From NCBI GenBank assembly GCA_013388605.1, contig JACAEY010000068.1, positions 1 to 53,356 of the forward strand: a DNA stretch of 53,356 nucleotides, in the 5' to 3' direction. The stretch comes from Nitrospirota bacterium. GTDB lineage: Bacteria > Nitrospirota > Thermodesulfovibrionia > Thermodesulfovibrionales > SM23-35. The number at the start of each line of letters is the position of its first letter. Positions within the stretch are counted from its first letter, which is position 1. A model generated the notes under the pieces. The model ran no database searches, was not told the origin of the DNA, and saw nothing but the letters and a program-made list of their open reading frames with translations. This document shows, in pieces, positions 7,303 to 23,669 of this stretch. The translations under genes were made by a program, and so were the position numbers.

Positions 7303-7648
7303 TGGTGGAGGCGGCGGGAATTGAACCCGCGTCCGAAAGTATGACCACCCAAATTTCTACATGTTTATTCTGCTTTTTCATCTCGGATAATGAACTGCCA
7401 GCAGAAGGGCTTTTCATTATCCAATCTCCATATTTCTTGCTTTAAGGAAAGGAGAAAATCCTTAAAGCCAGCCTGCTACCGACACTATCTCCAAGACACA
7501 GGCAATCTCGAAGTAGTGTGCTGCTTCAATTAAGCAGCGAGTGCCAGTTCGTTGTTGGCGCTTGTATATGTTTCCGCTTTTTTACGTGGTGACGGAGCCA
7601 CGACATGCTTTCTGAGCTTCATAACCTCCGTCGAGCCCTGTCGCCCCC
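7303..7648 (-). ncRNA. ssrA: tmRNA (SsrA), tag peptide (A)ANNELALAA
   Basis: The 5' end is GGGGGCGACAGGGCTCGACGG and the 3' end is GGACGCGGGTTCAATTCCCGCCGCCTCCACCA. The 7-bp acceptor stem has G3:U and is followed by an encoded CCA. The tag reading frame GCC AAC AAC GAA CTG GCA CTC GCT GCT TAA lies at 7559..7530. Total length is 346 nt. Confidence 0.93.
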
Positions 7649-17591: not shown

Positions 17592-18485
17592 ATGGATATA
17601 CATCAATTAAAGGTATTTACATCAGTTTTCAAAAACAGGAGCTTCTCAAAGGCATCAGAAGAACTTAACCTTACACAGCCAACCATAAGTGACCACATAA
17701 AGACACTTGAAGAAGAGCTTGATTGCAGACTCTTTGACAGGCTTGGAAGGATAATCATACCAACAAAAGAGGCAGAGGCTTTATATACCCATGCGATGGA
17801 AATTATAGAAAAAGCTAATATAACAAAAGACATAATCGGAAGATTTAAAAAAGAACTTACAGGAGAATTAGTTATTGGGGCAAGTACTATACCTGGCACA
17901 TATCTGATGCCTTCTCTAATAGCTACATTTCAGAGAAAACACCCCTCTGTTTCTTTCCAGATATTCATATCTGATTCAAAGGATATAGGTGAGAAGGTAC
18001 TGAAACACAAGATTCTTTTAGGAGTCGTTGGCACAAAATTTATTAATGGGGATATAAATCACATTCCCTTTGTCGAAGATGAATTAATTGTGGTATCTTC
18101 TCCCTCTTTGATTAAGAGCGACACGATAACTTTAAAAGATTTAATAAAGTTTCCAATGATACTAAGGGAAGAAGGTTCTGGAACAAGAAGAGAGCTTGAA
18201 AAGATCTTAGATTCAAAAGGTGTTACACTGGAAGATATTAAAATCGCTGGTGTATTTGGTTCAACAGATGCAGTAAAACAGGCTGTTAAAGCAGGACTTG
18301 GATTTTCAGTGCTATCAAAATTATCAGTAATTGATGAGTTAAAACATAAGATAGTTAAAGAGATCAAACTTACAGATATTCAGATGAAGAGGAAATTCTA
18401 TATAGTTATTCACAAAAAAAGAACCCTCCCACTTTTATATAGCAACTTTTTGGAACACCTTAAGGCTGAATCAAAAAAGATATAA
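17592..18485 (+). CDS. LysR-family transcriptional regulator, selenium-cluster associated by position
   Basis: 297 aa with the N-terminal wHTH FSKASEELNLTQPTISDHIKTLEEEL and a LysR substrate-binding fold. It lies 305 nt upstream of yedE, co-oriented. Confidence 0.85.
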   Translation: MDIHQLKVFTSVFKNRSFSKASEELNLTQPTISDHIKTLEEELDCRLFDRLGRIIIPTKEAEALYTHAMEIIEKANITKDIIGRFKKELTGELVIGASTIPGTYLMPSLIATFQRKHPSVSFQIFISDSKDIGEKVLKHKILLGVVGTKFINGDINHIPFVEDELIVVSSPSLIKSDTITLKDLIKFPMILREEGSGTRRELEKILDSKGVTLEDIKIAGVFGSTDAVKQAVKAGLGFSVLSKLSVIDELKHKIVKEIKLTDIQMKRKFYIVIHKKRTLPLLYSNFLEHLKAESKKI

Positions 18486-18790: not shown

Positions 18791-19882
18791 ATGGGCGTTA
18801 AGAATTTTTTTGGAACTTGCTTGGGTATTGTTCTGGTAGGTATTTTCATAGGTACTTTTGCTGCCTTACTTCAAAAATCGGGAAACCCAGCAAATATGGG
18901 TATTTGTGTCGCCTGTTTTGAAAGAGACATAGCAGGGGCTCTTGGGATACATAGGGCAGCTGTTGTCCAGTATATAAGACCTGAAATCATAGGTTTTGTC
19001 TTTGGCTCCTTAATTGCTGCATATGCTTTTAAGGAGTTTAGACCAAGGGTTGGTTCAGCCCCTATTGTCCGATTCGTTTTAGGATTTTTTGCAATGAGCG
19101 GTGCTCTTGTTTTTTTGGGTTGCCCGTGGCGTGCATTCCTCAGACTTGCAGGCGGAGATGGCAATGCCATCCTTGGTATTGCAGGGCTTGCTACTGGTGT
19201 AGCTGTAGGCGTTATCTTCTTAAAGAATGGATACAGTCTGGGAAGAAATCAAAAAACATTCACTTCAGTAGGCTGGATACTACCCCTTATCATGGCGAGT
19301 CTCTTTGCATTTCTGATCATTGCTCCCTTGATGGGCGATGGTGGTCAATCAGGTCCTATATTTTTCAGTGAAAATGGGCCTGGCTCAATGCATGCTCCTA
19401 TTGCAGTTTCTTTAATTGTTGGACTTCTTATAGGTTTCCTTGCACAGAGGACTCGATTTTGCACAATGGGTGCAATCAGGGATATTCTATTAATTAGAAA
19501 TTTTCATCTGGCAAGTGGAGTATTTGCTCTTTTAATTGCCGCCTTTATAACAAATCTCATATTAGGCCAATTTAAATTAGGATTTGCAGGTCAGCCGGTT
19601 GCCCATACCAACCACATCTGGAATTTTCTTGGAATGTCTTTAACGGGTCTCGCCTCTGCTCTTGCAGGAGGTTGTCCGGGTAGGCAATTATTCTTAGCAG
19701 GAGAGGGAGATGGTGATGCTGCTATATTTGTGCTTGGCATGATCTTTGGTGCCGGCTTTTCACATAATTTCTCACTTGCAAGCACTCCGGCTGGAATTGG
19801 TTTTTACGGGCCTCATGCTGTAATTATTGGAATCCTTGTATGCTTTTTTATAGGACTTACTATGCGAGAAAAAATAAAGTAA
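18791..19882 (+). CDS. yedE: YedE-family putative selenium/sulfur-compound transporter
   Basis: 363-aa polytopic protein with paired Cys-containing motifs (MGICVACFERD, RFCTMGAIRD, GGCPGRQ). A TusA-like gene follows it. Confidence 0.8.
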   Translation: MGVKNFFGTCLGIVLVGIFIGTFAALLQKSGNPANMGICVACFERDIAGALGIHRAAVVQYIRPEIIGFVFGSLIAAYAFKEFRPRVGSAPIVRFVLGFFAMSGALVFLGCPWRAFLRLAGGDGNAILGIAGLATGVAVGVIFLKNGYSLGRNQKTFTSVGWILPLIMASLFAFLIIAPLMGDGGQSGPIFFSENGPGSMHAPIAVSLIVGLLIGFLAQRTRFCTMGAIRDILLIRNFHLASGVFALLIAAFITNLILGQFKLGFAGQPVAHTNHIWNFLGMSLTGLASALAGGCPGRQLFLAGEGDGDAAIFVLGMIFGAGFSHNFSLASTPAGIGFYGPHAVIIGILVCFFIGLTMREKIK

Positions 19883-19891
19883 GAAGGTTTT

Positions 19892-20113
19892 ATGGGTGAA
19901 CAAGTTGACGCAAGAGGGCTTTCATGTCCCCAGCCAGTTATATTGACACATAATAAGATGAAGGTGCTTAGGAAAGGTGTCTTTGAGGTGCTGGTTGATA
20001 CTGATACTTCACGTGAAAATATAAGTCGCCTTGCAAAAAATGAAGGCTGGGAAATTATAGATACTAAAAAAACAGAGGATTCAGGATACATCCTGACTCT
20101 TAGGAAAGAATAA
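19892..20113 (+). CDS. TusA/SirA-like sulfur(selenium) carrier protein
   Basis: 73 aa with the DARGLSCPQP (CPxP) motif. Confidence 0.85.
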   Translation: MGEQVDARGLSCPQPVILTHNKMKVLRKGVFEVLVDTDTSRENISRLAKNEGWEIIDTKKTEDSGYILTLRKE

Positions 20114-20115
20114 AT

Positions 20116-20646
20116 TTGCCCTTAATTAAATCTAAAAAAGAAGAAAAAAAACCCGATAGAGGGTTCCTGGTATTTCACAATACGAGTGATGTAATTAGAG
20201 CAGAAAAGATCTTGAAAAAAGAGGGATTTAAAATCCGAGTTATGGGACCTCCTCCAGAGCATCGCAGGGGATGCGATCTTGTTATTGAATTCCCTTTAAT
20301 CGAACAACTTAATATTCTAAGGATTCTTGAGAAGAAAAGTACCCCACCAATTGATGCAGTTCCTGTAGATAATCCCCTACTCAAACCAATAGAAATTGTT
20401 AAAACCAAAGATTTTGGGAAATATATAATGGTAAGAGCAGCAAACATGAAAATGACCGTAGAAAAAAGTACTTTGAAAATTGTTAATATTTCTGGAGGTG
20501 GTTGTCCTGATGTACCTTATCTGGCTGAGAAGCTAATTGGGAAAACCCTTAAAGAGGCACCTGAACCAAAGCAGATTGGACATACTCTTTGTGCTTATGC
20601 TTTACATATAGCTTATGAGGAGATGACAAAGAGATGCTTGCTTTGA
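20116..20646 (+). CDS. DUF3343 domain protein with Cys-containing C-terminal extension (IscU/NifU-like signature)
   Basis: 176 aa with a TTG start 2 nt after the upstream stop. The N-terminal half GFLVFHNTSDVIRAEKILKKEGFKIRVMGPPPEHRRGCDLVIEF matches the DUF3343 pattern. The C-terminal half carries ISGGGCPDVPYLAEKLIGKTLKEA...GHTLCAYALHIA. Confidence 0.65.
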   Translation: MPLIKSKKEEKKPDRGFLVFHNTSDVIRAEKILKKEGFKIRVMGPPPEHRRGCDLVIEFPLIEQLNILRILEKKSTPPIDAVPVDNPLLKPIEIVKTKDFGKYIMVRAANMKMTVEKSTLKIVNISGGGCPDVPYLAEKLIGKTLKEAPEPKQIGHTLCAYALHIAYEEMTKRCLL

Positions 20647-21530
20647 TTGGTACAATCCCTTATGACGGCTTTCCCATTCTTTCAGGAGAAATTTCTGTTA
20701 AAAACAGTAATATTTTAATTGGGGAAAAGTCTTTTCAGATTAAGAGAGGGTTTAAAGCCATGATAGGTGCTGCATCAATAGTTTGCAAAGAGCTGAGTCT
20801 TTTTCCTCCAACAGCATTTACTGCAGGGGATATTGGGCTAGGTGATGGCAGCAAAAGACTCTATGAACATCTGAGGAATCAACTTAGTGGAATTCAAGTT
20901 TCAGTCCTAACCTTTCACTATCTTATGCCTGATATATTCTGGCATGATCAGATCATTAAAGCTATTGAAGAGATGTCAAAAAAGCCTATACTTATTGCAG
21001 ATGCAGGATTTATGTATGTAGCCAAGATGAGTGGTTTTGCACCTTTTTATGATCTTTTTACACCAGATATAGGAGAACTTGCTTTTTTAGCTGATGAGTT
21101 AGCTCCTCATCCTTTTTACACAAGAGGTTTTATCTGTCATGAAGAAAATAACGTCCCATCCTTAATCTCAAGGGCATATAAAAGTGAAAACGCCTCAAAG
21201 TTTTTGATAGTAAAAGGGGAAAATGACTACATATGCAGTAATGGAGAAATAATAGCTATTATTAAAGAACCTAATGTAGAGACATTAGAACCCATAGGAG
21301 GGACTGGTGATACTTTAACGGGCATTGTATCAGCACTTGTATATAGTGGTTATGCCATTGAGGACGCAGCAGTAATGGCTGCAATAATTAACCGCCTGGC
21401 AGGAGAGCTTGCTAATCCTTCGCCAAGTACACAGGTTTCAGAAATAATTTCATACATACCAAAGGCACTCTCTATTGTTCTGAAAAGTTTAGATAAAAAG
21501 AATAATGAAATTCATGTTAAAGGAAATTAA
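20634..21530 (+). CDS. ribokinase-fold protein, YjeF_C/NnrD-like (function unknown)
   Basis: 298 aa. PILIADAGFMY...FTPDIGELAFL...LIVKGENDYI...PIGGTGDTLTGIVSAL...AA..A...AG follows the order of motifs in ADP/ATP-dependent NAD(P)HX dehydratase-type kinases. Overlaps the upstream gene by 13 nt. Confidence 0.6.
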   Translation: MLALIGTIPYDGFPILSGEISVKNSNILIGEKSFQIKRGFKAMIGAASIVCKELSLFPPTAFTAGDIGLGDGSKRLYEHLRNQLSGIQVSVLTFHYLMPDIFWHDQIIKAIEEMSKKPILIADAGFMYVAKMSGFAPFYDLFTPDIGELAFLADELAPHPFYTRGFICHEENNVPSLISRAYKSENASKFLIVKGENDYICSNGEIIAIIKEPNVETLEPIGGTGDTLTGIVSALVYSGYAIEDAAVMAAIINRLAGELANPSPSTQVSEIISYIPKALSIVLKSLDKKNNEIHVKGN

Positions 21531-21720
21531 CCTAACTGAAAAAGTAAAGGCCTCCGGTTGAGCGGCTAAACTAAGCCTAGGGACTGAGCGAGGTTATGGC
21601 AGATTTGCTGTAATAAAGCACCCAAACTTCACAATAGTTTATGAGACTTCCGATGATGCTGGAGCCTATAAGCTGGGTTCAAGACTCTTAAATGAGGCAT
21701 TAGCCCTTATGTATGTGCTG
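21506..21720 (+). pseudogene. decayed 5' fragment of a selD gene retaining the in-frame TGA
   Basis: Frame A from the ATG at 21506 gives MKFMLKEINLTEK, then a TAA. Frame A-1 from 21541 gives KVKASG-TGA(21559-21561)-AAKLSLG...KHPNFTIVYETSDDAGAYKLG. Compare intact SelD: MKVKNSVKLSEKVRAAG-TGA-ASKISPL...KHPDLLVGIETSDDAGVYRL. There is a 1-nt frameshift near 21541, and no similarity after about 21720. Confidence 0.75.
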
Positions 21721-21793
21721 TCTAAGTCAGGGAAGGTTAATTTTTTCAAGATGCTTAAAACAGCCATAACATGTTTCCAGAAGAAACATCTTG

Positions 21794-21900
21794 TTACTCA
21801 ACTTATCTATAATTGCCTTTTTATTATTTTTAAAAAGCAAAAATCTATAAATTAAGTTATTACCATAGATATAATCAATTTGATTTATAGTTTTTTTATT
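21794..21900 (+). repeat. 106-bp direct repeat R2 (shared upstream module of selD)
   Basis: Near-identical copy of 18555..18660. Weaker similarity continues to the start codons. The yedE leader reads ttttacaaacac...taaaggggttctgaATG and the selD leader reads ttttacaaatat...taaagagaaggggttcttacttaaATG. Confidence 0.9.
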
Positions 21901-21991
21901 TTTTAAAATTATAAAAAATGGGTGGAAAAATTGTAGAAATACCTTTTACAAATATCGGTTCTAAATTTAAAGAGAAGGGGTTCTTACTTAA

Positions 21992-23041
21992 ATGAAAGTG
22001 AAAAACTCAGTAAAATTATCTGAAAAGGTTCGCGCTGCTGGTTGAGCTTCAAAAATAAGTCCGTTGGACTTAACAGAGATTCTCAACTGCCTTACTTTCG
22101 ATAAACATCCTGATCTCCTTGTAGGTATAGAGACGTCGGATGATGCAGGCGTATATCGTCTCACACCTGAAATAGCACTCATACAGACACTGGATTTCTT
22201 CACCCCGATTGTCAATGATCCTTATGATTTTGGAAGAATAGCAGCGACAAATGCATTCAGTGATGTCTATGCAATGGGCGGAAAACCTCTCACTGCGATG
22301 AATATTGTATGTTTCCCAATAAAAGAACTCGACAAAGATACTCTACGTGCTATCCTTCAAGGAGGGCTTGAGGTAATCCATAAAGCAGGTGCGGTTATGG
22401 TAGGGGGTCATAGTGTTGAGGACCGTGAGCTGAAATATGGTCTTTCAGTTACGGGCATTGTTCACCCTGATAAAATCTTGACTAATGCAGGTGCAAAACC
22501 GGGCGATCTATTGATTCTAACAAAACCTCTTGGAACAGGTATCTTATCAACTGCTTTAAAAGGTGGAAAACTAAATGAAAAACAGACTTGTAACCTTACA
22601 GAATTGATGGCTACATTAAATAAAGATGCTGCTGAGGTGATGACCGATATAGGAGTTAATGCATGCACTGATATCACTGGTTTTGGACTTCTCGGTCATG
22701 CCTTAGAAATTGCAAAGGCAAGTAATGTCAGTATCCGTATTTATTCAGATAAGGTCCCTGTAATTTCTGATGCCATAGAATTTGCATCTATGGGAATGAT
22801 ACCTGAAGGTAGCCATTTGAACCAGAAATTTTGTCGTCAATACCTTGATATTTCTCCTGAATTAGACCCAATCACAGGAGATATTCTCGCCGACGCACAG
22901 ACCTCAGGTGGTCTCTTGATATCTGTTCCCGAGGAAAAGTCTAAACAACTTTTAAATGGGCTTATTGAACGAAAAACACCTGCTGCAAAAGTAATAGGGG
23001 AGGTTTTCAGCGAACCGAAAGGGGTTATACAGATAAGGTGA
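21992..23041 (+). CDS. selD: selenide, water dikinase SelD, selenocysteine-containing (UGA at 22043-22045)
   Basis: The track ORF 22064..23041 extends in frame upstream through a single TGA to the ATG at 21992, which is preceded by aagggg. The N-terminus MKVKNSVKLSEKVRAAG-U-ASKISPLDL places U where SelD has its catalytic Cys/Sec, three residues before the conserved Lys. The rest is typical SelD (ETSDDAGVY, FFTPIV, GGHSVED). Confidence 0.88.
22056..22072 (+). promoter_or_regulatory. SECIS-like hairpin downstream of the selD UGA
   Basis: taagtcc-gtt-ggactta forms a 7-bp stem with a GUU loop. It starts 10-11 nt after the UGA, the spacing expected for bacterial SECIS elements. Confidence 0.5.
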
Positions 23042-23078
23042 TAATTTTGTTTACCTGACCATGAAGGAGTTAAATACG

Positions 23079-23669
23079 ATGATCGTTGATGCAAGAGGAT
23101 ATGGATGTCCAAAGCCTGTTCTCATGGCGGAAGAGGCATTATCAAAAATAACAGAAGGCGGGATAGAAATACTCGTTGATAACGAGGCATCTGCAAATAA
23201 TCTTAAGAGGTTTGCAGCAAAGAACAATTTCTATTCAGATGTAATTAAAGAAGAAAATTTCTGGTGTGTCAGGATTGTCAAAGGATATGTCTGTGAGATA
23301 CCTGCGGAGGAGTACAAAGAAAAGAAACCTGGTAAAGACTTATTTCTTGTCATTGCTACAGATACAATAGGCAAAGAGGAAGAACTTGGCAGAATACTTA
23401 TGAAGGCATACTTTGAGACAATGAAAGCATATAAAGAGCTACCAGATGCAATATTCTTTTTGAACACAGGGGTGAAAATTACTACAGTAGATAATGAAAT
23501 ACTTCCAATAATCAAAGAAATTGAAGAAATGGGAGTAGAAATCTTTACCTGTGGCACATGCCTTAAGTTCTTTAATCTCGAATCAGAACTTAAGGTTGGG
23601 TTCAGGGGAACAACAAATCATCTTGTAGAAGGTATTAAAGAGTTTAAAAAGACTGTATGGGTTGGATAA
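23079..23669 (+). CDS. yedF: YedF-type selenium metabolism protein (TusA-like N-domain + DsrE-like C-domain)
   Basis: MIVDARGYGCPKPVLMA (CPxP), then a DsrE-like half ending in TCGTCLKF. AAGGAG lies 9 nt upstream of the ATG at 23079. An alternative in-frame ATG is at 23061. Confidence 0.8.
   Translation: MIVDARGYGCPKPVLMAEEALSKITEGGIEILVDNEASANNLKRFAAKNNFYSDVIKEENFWCVRIVKGYVCEIPAEEYKEKKPGKDLFLVIATDTIGKEEELGRILMKAYFETMKAYKELPDAIFFLNTGVKITTVDNEILPIIKEIEEMGVEIFTCGTCLKFFNLESELKVGFRGTTNHLVEGIKEFKKTVWVG

Follow-up and report, generated by a model that had tools for sequence, protein, structure and literature searches.

We examined a 53,356-nucleotide contig of a Nitrospirota bacterium (GenBank assembly GCA_013388605.1, contig JACAEY010000068.1; hereafter the window) in which two overlapping genes encode a cysteine-containing carrier protein and an enzyme of the ribokinase fold. 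Both belong to a four-gene cassette on the forward strand. The first cassette gene (18791-19882, +) encodes a YedE-family membrane protein, a putative selenium transporter that scored 491.7 bits against the TIGR04112 seleno_YedE model (cut-off 200). It is followed by a gene for a TusA-like protein of 73 residues with a single cysteine in the motif GLSCPQP (19892-20113, +; PF01206 TusA, 64 bits). The carrier gene (20116-20646, +) encodes 176 residues that combine a DUF3343/Se_S_carrier domain with a DUF8182 domain, as judged from PF11823, PF26554, alignments and an AlphaFold2 (AF2) model. The last gene (20634-21530, +) encodes a divergent 298-residue ribokinase-fold enzyme, here called the kinase-like protein, which was assigned from a PF01256 match of 45.7 bits, an AF2 model and Foldseek. 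The carrier reading frame opens with TTG, with the Shine-Dalgarno sequence AGGAAAGA upstream. The kinase-like frame opens with ATG at 20634, 13 nt ahead of the carrier stop codon (TGA, 20644-20646), and is preceded by the Shine-Dalgarno sequence GAGGAG. No terminator-like site was found on the coding strand at the gene boundaries inside the cassette.

To place this arrangement in context, we scanned one genome per species, found a relative of the kinase-like protein encoded in at least 571 stretches, and analyzed the best 80 loci. These came from Nitrospirota (Thermodesulfovibrionales) and from many lineages of Desulfobacterota. The carrier stop codon overlapped the start of the kinase-like gene in 74 of 78 related loci, and in 53 of them the overlap was exactly the 13 nt that an earlier note on this DNA had reported for the window. 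All 62 loci with enough upstream DNA had YedE ahead of the pair, and 60 of the 62 also had TusA, giving the gene order YedE, TusA, carrier, kinase. When neighboring open reading frames (ORFs) were clustered, only the four cassette genes were universal; the next commonest neighbors were selD (30 loci), a LysR regulator (15 loci) and an ABC ATPase (15 loci). The survey of neighborhoods that the earlier note had proposed found the arrangement in every related locus examined. Where at least 2 kb of downstream sequence was available (60 loci), selD was present within the locus in 27 and directly downstream of the kinase-like gene in 19. The conserved unit is therefore the four-gene cassette YedE-TusA-carrier-kinase and not a pair coupled to selD. 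The earlier suggestion that the pair was once joined directly to selD agrees with the overlap between the kinase-like gene and a selD relic in this window, described below, but does not hold as a conserved trait.

We also looked at divergent contexts, using ten DUF8182 carrier proteins, nine of which were 36-59% identical in the C-half. In all ten a Carb_kinase-like gene lay immediately downstream of the carrier gene or was fused to it, and five representative proteins of 514-588 residues were single-chain DUF3343-DUF8182-Carb_kinase fusions. The membrane partner in distant loci was seleno_YedE, whole or split, in 7 of 11, with TIGR04112 as the best-scoring family and the TsuA models as weak secondary matches. 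Of the remaining four, one (L098, below) had a TrsS-like radical SAM gene and a permease of the ArsP/SaoE type, one had neither this arrangement nor seleno_YedE, and two were on contigs too short to tell. Split YedE occurred in archaeal and some other distant loci (L094, L096 and L101) as two genes of about 150-170 residues each, and in these the small TusA gene was absent between the split YedE and the carrier. One of them (L094:5648-8645, GCA_017875395.1) had a 185-nt gap in place of the carrier-kinase overlap. In this variant locus (L098:22-3490) the pair stood behind a TrsS-like radical SAM (seleno)protein homologue (367 bits, cut-off 490) and the permease just mentioned, with no YedE or TusA. 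Because of the kept overlap, the constant adjacency and the natural fusions, we conclude that the carrier and kinase-like genes are a real functional unit and are translationally coupled.

The kinase-like protein retained the features by which it had first been placed in the ribokinase fold. The GGTGDTLTG motif occupies residues 222-230 (21297-21323), and PF01256 Carb_kinase matched with 45.7 bits against a gathering score of 27, over profile positions 92-241 only. The AF2 model was confident (predicted local distance difference test, pLDDT, 89; predicted template-modeling score, pTM, 0.90), and Foldseek gave 97 matches in the PDB at E<=1e-3, of which the 50 listed were all ribokinase-like. 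No single structure stood out among them. Near-ties included Pfk-2, ThiD, Thi20, TM0922 (Nnr), pseudouridine kinase, EF1790, PdxK, ribokinase, YxkO and ThiM, with E values from 5e-7 to 5e-5 and template-modeling (TM) scores of about 0.5-0.55. Pfk-2 and ThiD ranked at the top, and the NnrD entries 2ax3, 3rss, 1kyh and 2r3b ranked ninth or lower (TM 0.50-0.55). In a sequence search of the PDB, ThiM (1.4e-4) came ahead of TM0922 (4.6e-3). Alignment to known families was limited to the C-terminal, nucleotide-binding third of the protein, and the model carries a three-strand beta insertion after strand 1 (residues 16-35). Among 55 homologues 52-78% identical to the window protein, 65 columns were invariant, the anion-hole and catalytic-base motif GGTGD226 included. 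Among these columns are also many charged residues and the motifs ADAGxMYxAKMSG, FTPDxGELAFLAD and APHPFYTRGF, which are specific to the family, but no cysteine.

GenBank names this product NAD(P)H-hydrate dehydratase, and databases also call relatives sugar kinase. If the GenBank name were right, the gene would be an ordinary NAD(P)HX dehydratase (NnrD) engaged in metabolite repair, and its place in the operon would be incidental. The name itself, the GGxGDxLxG motif and a PF01256 score above the gathering threshold all fit that account. The NnrD equivalog model TIGR00196, however, gave 45.4 bits against a cut-off of 129.85, and the bifunctional Nnr model PRK10565 gave 16 bits against 703. 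The restricted alignment, the precedence of ThiM in the sequence search and of Pfk-2 and ThiD in Foldseek (all at TM of about 0.5), the N-terminal beta-hairpin insertion, the family-specific invariant motifs and the obligate coupling or fusion to the carrier gene all speak against it as well. We rejected ordinary NnrD identity on score, alignment coverage, structural neighbors and genomic context, and regard it as barely credible. The low NnrD score, the partial alignment, the lack of a standout structural neighbor and the family-specific motifs lead us to conclude that the kinase-like protein is a distinct family in the ribokinase-like superfamily, and both database names are probably wrong. 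NnrD (YjeF_C) nevertheless remains an instructive comparison. The two have in common a ribokinase-like fold, GGxGDxLxG near the C-terminus and a motif resembling TPxxGE (here FTPDIGE), a likeness that lends support to the idea of a kinase-like enzyme activating a hydroxyl by means of a nucleotide phosphate. They differ in that the kinase-like protein lies far below the equivalog cut-off, has an N-terminal substrate half unrelated in sequence, and has an extra beta-hairpin, no YjeF_N partner and a selenium-operon context. The enzyme appears to be catalytically competent, to judge from the retained GGTGD residues.

The carrier protein was also much as first described, with a DUF3343 N-half and a conserved Gly-Cys motif. 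PF11823 (Se_S_carrier, DUF3343) covered residues 16-78 with 71.7 bits against a cut-off of 25. The cysteine of its RGCD motif, Cys53 (20272-20274), was invariant among 55 homologues, and it was kept in the divergent carrier representatives too, the degenerate P0320 excepted. The C-half motifs quoted in the earlier note could be read directly from the translation: ISGGGC130PD (Cys at 20503-20505), GKTLKEA and GHTLC159 (Cys at 20590-20592). In newer Pfam releases residues 92-176, approximately, correspond to PF26554 (DUF8182), according to precomputed hits for the cluster of the window protein and for all homologues. In 36 diverse members of DUF8182 the invariant residues were K112, N124, S126-G-G-G-C130-P-D132 and C159; His156 and Cys174 were invariant in close relatives only and variable across the wider family. 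Since Cys174 varies, the conserved thiols of the carrier are Cys53, Cys130 and Cys159. An AF2 model built from the 55-sequence alignment (pLDDT 84, pTM 0.49) showed two domains, with a linker of low confidence between them (residues 87-91) and the order beta-alpha-beta-beta-alpha-beta in the N-domain. Foldseek found weak ACT/PII-like matches only for this model, and these were driven by the DUF3343 domain.

To gauge how common the C-half is, we ran an exhaustive phmmer search with this half alone against 1.84 billion representative proteins. DUF8182 was found in just 104 clusters at 50% identity. Near-full-length proteins were mostly of about 170-230 residues, and many shorter entries looked like fragments. 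DUF3343 was present in 7 of 10 DUF8182 representatives scanned against Pfam and in all 10 carrier proteins examined in their contigs. Three proteins (P0277, P0274 and P0268) were odd DUF8182 fusions or fragments, for which assembly chimeras are possible. One odd fragment had a BMC-domain-like N-terminus (Pfam BMC, E 6.8e-6); of the others, one was joined to a GCV_T folate-binding domain and one had a transporter-like hydrophobic N-terminus.

The earlier note had likened the C-half to the IscU/NifU scaffold signature. Pursued to its end, this would make DUF8182 a degenerate IscU/NifU-type scaffold that assembles or senses a metal or Fe-S(e) center on Cys130, Cys159 and Asp132, with Cys53 contributed by DUF3343 and the kinase-like partner serving as a nucleotide-dependent release factor. 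We assembled a reference profile of 12 IscU, NifU and SufU sequences from E. coli IscU (identical to PDB 2l4x_A), plasmid records and locus L030, and aligned it by hhalign with a profile of 36 DUF8182 sequences. The best alignment (score 18.4, P=0.014, probability 3%) fell in the predicted register, setting NMK against VMK, GGGC130 against YGC63, GKxLxEA against GKSLDEA, and C159 against C106 of IscU. Column-shuffled profiles reached that score in 3 of 300 cases, and alignment with the single IscU sequence gave P=0.09. The AF2 model placed strands at residues 103-108, 111-116 and 121-127, a helix from 133 and a last helix from 158. This order, with three to four strands, a helix after the Gly-Cys and a long final helix from the second cysteine, is compatible with the layout of IscU. 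The possible likeness would extend to the beta-sheet, a Gly-Cys helix cap, the GKxLxEA turn and a second cysteine capping the last helix, and in both cases a cysteine-based acceptor would take its chalcogen from a transferase.

Other evidence argued against a scaffold of this kind. Apart from the hhalign probability of 3%, searches of the PDB with hidden Markov models (HMMs) from full-length and DUF8182-only profiles gave no IscU, NifU or SufU match at E<=10, and a Pfam scan of the 36 members gave no NifU_N (PF01592) at E<=10. Nor was IscU among the 50 best Foldseek matches of the two-domain carrier model. The IscU ligand set in E. coli is C37, D39, C63 and C106, and only two carrier positions (C130 and C159) align with a cysteine. 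The position of the first Cys/Asp pair is A108-A109-N110 in the carrier, and the missing first scaffold cysteine had been noticed from the start. His156 and Cys174 are not kept family-wide, the carrier has one helix fewer than IscU, and the cassette has no cysteine desulfurase partner. A competing similarity came from the FKBP26 insert-in-flap (IF) domain, the only recurrent weak Pfam match, which was seen in 17 of the 36 members with a best E of 2.7e-4, under the family cut-off. This FKBP26/SlyD IF likeness falls on the beta-region of DUF8182 (window 20404-20499) and hints at an alternative fold. We take the likeness to IscU to be slightly above chance and positionally coherent at the level of aligned profiles, short of establishing homology or fold identity, and the scaffold reading to be doubtful.

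Four features of the window link the locus to selenium by curated family models: seleno_YedE, LysR_Sec_metab, selD and YedF. The LysR-family regulator upstream of the cassette (17592-18485, +) belongs to the selenium-metabolism subfamily (NCBIfam NF040786 LysR_Sec_metab; 306 bits, cut-off 250). Downstream lie an intact, live selD for selenophosphate synthetase (21992-23041, +; TIGR00476, 371 bits for the part after an in-frame selenocysteine (Sec) TGA at 22043-22045) and a gene for the selenium metabolism protein YedF, which joins TusA and DsrE-like parts (23061-23669, +; TIGR03527 selenium_YedF, 192 bits against 110). ORF callers shorten live selD to 22064-23041 because of the in-frame TGA. 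A hairpin of 7 bp (22056-22072) that resembles a selenocysteine insertion sequence (SECIS) begins 10 nt past this TGA (z -2.6).

Between the cassette and live selD lies a second, decayed copy of the selD 5' end, a relic of about 54 codons (21514-21675, +) with a Sec TGA at 21559-21561. It reads MLKEINLTEKVKASG-TGA(21559-21561)-AAKLS...ETSDDAGAYKL. It is about 65-70% identical in nucleotides to the N-terminus of live selD, with indels, up to about 21675, after which the two diverge. No SECIS-like hairpin was found in the relic (z +0.6). The stop codon of the kinase-like gene (TAA, 21528-21530) lies inside this fragment, which begins with ATG at 21514, so that the two overlap by 17 nt, as the earlier note had observed. 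The layout of relic and live copy points to an ancestral junction between the kinase-like gene and selD that was broken and then replaced.

The locus was recovered independently from hot-spring metagenomes, two runs of which covered it at 92-95% of sampled words. One contiguous metagenome contig of 3196 nt runs from yedE through the selD relic, and the relic is therefore not an assembly artefact. In a hot-spring metatranscriptome from the same study, yedE, tusA, selD and yedF were each represented by contigs, as was part of the carrier gene (20308-20499). None lay on the kinase-like gene in this tiny run, which is too small to assess co-transcription of the pair and in which DNA carry-over is possible.

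Expression data on a relative of the carrier gene come from Methanococcus. The locus with the 185-nt gap has a Methanococcus-like archaeal look, with low G+C and an archaeal-type ribosomal protein operon. Its carrier is 44% and its kinase 38% identical to the window proteins. Its gene order (TctA, OB-fold protein, split YedE, carrier, kinase) is the same as that of M. maripaludis JJ from MMJJ_13030 to MMJJ_12990. In that strain the DUF3343 gene MMJJ_12990, which lies beside split yedE, was 4.9-fold up under selenium depletion, and the yedE halves were about 40-fold up (PMC11097638 supplement). Together with the seleno_YedE family, LysR_Sec_metab and the frequent adjacency of selD, this induction is the basis on which we link the cassette to selenium. 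We propose that the pair forms the cytoplasmic half of a cassette devoted to acquiring and relaying selenium, a reading that we favor by a narrow balance. With moderate confidence, its general role is selenium trafficking between uptake and SelD.

The selenium reading faces several contrary observations. Deletion of yedE in M. maripaludis had no clear selenium-uptake phenotype (PMC11097638), and MMJJ_12980, the presumed kinase gene, is missing from the selenium-regulated list (PMC11097638 supplement). There is no selenium-specific clade of DUF3343, and homologues occur in organisms that lack SelD (Lin et al. 2015, PMC5322559). In about half of the loci selD is missing from the surrounding 10 kb, and in one variant locus an ArsP/SaoE-type permease replaces YedE. 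The hosts belong to Thermodesulfovibrionia and Desulfobacterota, lineages that cycle sulfur and in whose sulfur metabolism YedE/TusA cassettes also take part (PMC8780430, PMC9751629, PMC13490349).

Much of this would suit a module that handles sulfur, importing thiosulfate or sulfane sulfur and relaying it much as TsuA/TsuB or the YTD (YedE-TusA-DsrE) cluster would, with a persulfide on the carrier and the kinase-like enzyme acting on a sulfur intermediate. Hosts that reduce sulfate or disproportionate sulfur, a DUF3343 domain that is not confined to selenium and a selD missing from roughly half of the loci all fit, as does a YedE/TusA architecture common to both of those systems. TsuA/TsuB (YeeE/YeeD) is a thiosulfate uptake pair. 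It resembles the cassette in setting a YeeE/YedE-family channel beside a gene for a TusA-like cytoplasmic cysteine protein, and differs in having no kinase-like or DUF3343 component. The window YedE, moreover, scored 33-44 bits on the TsuA thiosulfate models (cut-offs 400-645), as against 491 bits on TIGR04112. The YTD cluster of sulfur-disproportionating bacteria comprises YedE-TusA-DsrE and two conserved hypothetical proteins (PMC8780430). It shares with the cassette a YedE-family protein followed by a small TusA, the host phyla, and the character of a relay cassette whose accessory proteins were at first of obscure role. According to PMC13490349, citing Plum-Jensen 2026, the two hypothetical proteins form a DsrEFH type II sulfurtransferase, and on that description we rejected the identification of our cassette with the YTD cluster. 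The accessory proteins here are DUF3343-DUF8182 and a ribokinase-fold enzyme instead, no DsrE-like gene stands between TusA and the pair, and YedE falls in the selenium-linked TIGR04112 with selD, YedF and LysR_Sec_metab as neighbors. Since the archaeal homologue is also induced by selenium depletion, and the pair is present in Methanococcus-type archaea, which use Sec, we consider a sulfur module unlikely. A further account keeps selenium and leaves SelD unfed: the kinase would phosphorylate a hydroxylated molecule (compare ThiM, ThiD and PdxK) and the carrier would donate selenium, so that the pair would make or recycle a small selenium metabolite or cofactor. The closest structural relatives of the enzyme are indeed small-molecule kinases, the abundance of invariant polar residues hints at a substrate that is small and well defined, and an adjacent selD is often lacking. 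No other biosynthetic genes recur, however, the frequent neighbors being only YedE, TusA, selD, LysR and the ABC ATPase, and we hold this account to be very improbable.

Returning to a selenium relay, we can outline how the four proteins might work together. By analogy with TsuA/TsuB, YedE would admit a selenium species and the cysteine of TusA would capture it. Selenium would then pass to the carrier thiols, Cys53 in DUF3343 and Cys130 (in the SGGGCPD loop) and Cys159 in DUF8182, where it may be held as a perselenide or selenotrisulfide. The ribokinase-fold enzyme, with its kept GGTGD and its family-specific N-terminal substrate half, would spend ATP or ADP on the carrier-bound selenium. Our preferred guess is a phosphoryl activation of an Se-OH or oxyanion as a leaving group, in the manner of NnrD, after which reduced selenium would be released to SelD at sub-micromolar supply. 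This specific chemistry is drawn by analogy and is improbable as it stands. SelD itself offers a parallel, in that its N-terminus has a glycine-rich Sec/Cys loop, GxG(U/C), next to a nucleotide-dependent active site. The carrier likewise has a cysteine in a glycine-rich loop (SGGGC), an analogy at the level of motifs between a PurM-like fold on the one hand and a ribokinase-like fold plus DUF8182 on the other. By this likeness the SGGGC loop would be the part of the carrier most likely to reach into the active site of the kinase. A bolder version has the enzyme transferring the nucleotide phosphoryl to selenium on the Cys130 loop (a perselenide or selenite adduct), giving a protein-bound or free activated donor, possibly selenophosphate. 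Such chemistry would be new for the fold, and we think it very unlikely. If true, it would provide a second, carrier-dependent route to activated selenium, either in parallel with SelD or preceding it as a front end of high affinity, which would explain the cassettes with no selD nearby. Overall there is a modest chance that the cassette hides new chemistry.

The Km of SelD for free selenide is far over physiological levels. The cassette is a concrete and widespread candidate for the capture of selenium and its hand-off to selenophosphate synthetase at nanomolar supply. It occurs in Bacteria and in a Methanococcus-type archaeon, with a relative encoded by each of the 571 or more stretches. Having a nucleotide-dependent partner implies that the trafficking of selenium (or sulfur) includes a step that costs energy and is absent from current models, and our results suggest an undescribed ATP-dependent step in the selenium supply of the cell. 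For no organism is there proof of a transporter or delivery chain dedicated to selenium (PMC11097638). The hypothesis is open to a direct test in M. maripaludis, which carries the genes and for which a selenium reporter strain and tools for markerless deletion exist.

Parts of this system were already known, namely the DUF3343-selenium link, the YedE, YedF and LysR_Se families, and DUF8182 as a Pfam entry. Lin et al. 2015 (PMC5322559) had put the link forward. The N-domain of the carrier is a bona fide member of their Se_S_carrier family, with its single conserved cysteine and its genomic association with YedE, YedF and SelD. Typical members are stand-alone proteins of 80-100 residues, whereas the carrier adds DUF8182 with two more conserved cysteines and is obligately paired with a ribokinase-fold enzyme. 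That paper makes no mention of a ribokinase-fold partner, its single "kinase" being PSTK. The earlier proposal of a carrier plus a nucleotide-dependent enzyme in selenium handling therefore stands as regards a coupled pair in a selenium context, but its DUF3343-selenium component was not new. Literature searches on DUF8182, and on selenophosphate with YedE, TusA and kinase, found nothing. A random-barcode transposon sequencing (RB-TnSeq) preprint on M. maripaludis contained nothing on the pair's genes, and no publication describing the carrier-kinase pair was found in the searchable literature. Relative to the literature found, the new elements are the role of DUF8182, the obligate ribokinase-fold partner, the fusions and the four-gene cassette as a unit. 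Two of the four cassette parts have never been discussed in the searchable literature. DUF8182 gains a testable role, and a systematic misannotation of the kinase-like family is corrected.

Several smaller observations concern the surroundings of the cassette. Across the 80 loci (L001-L080), a PstB-like ABC-transporter ATPase lay about 4 kb downstream of the kinase-like gene on the opposite strand in 15, and SelB appeared in 4. Both neighbors probably reflect synteny within a clade and are not part of the cassette. Within the window, about 300 nt of AT-rich DNA separates the relic from live selD (region 21514-21990), and a promoter-like site lies before live selD at 21880-21909. Metagenome contigs are interrupted at 21823 and 21873, the word depth is twice as high over 21720-21930, and one contig continues into different sequence beyond 21900. 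Such features suggest that strains differ in structure between relic and live selD (21720-21930), or that a repeat lies there. At the start of yedF (23060-23073) metagenome contigs carried compensating +1/-1 indels, with a G inserted after 23060 and a base missing at 23073; this pair of indels in the first YedF codons is a population variant. Promoter-like sites were no more frequent in the window than in shuffled sequences, and terminator-like sites were about twice as frequent (9 vs 4.0, sd 2.0). In the operon an Rfam scan detected neither a riboswitch nor an RNA element of any other kind, the sole match in the window being a tmRNA gene elsewhere, at 7303-7648 on the reverse strand (RF00023, 205.8 bits).

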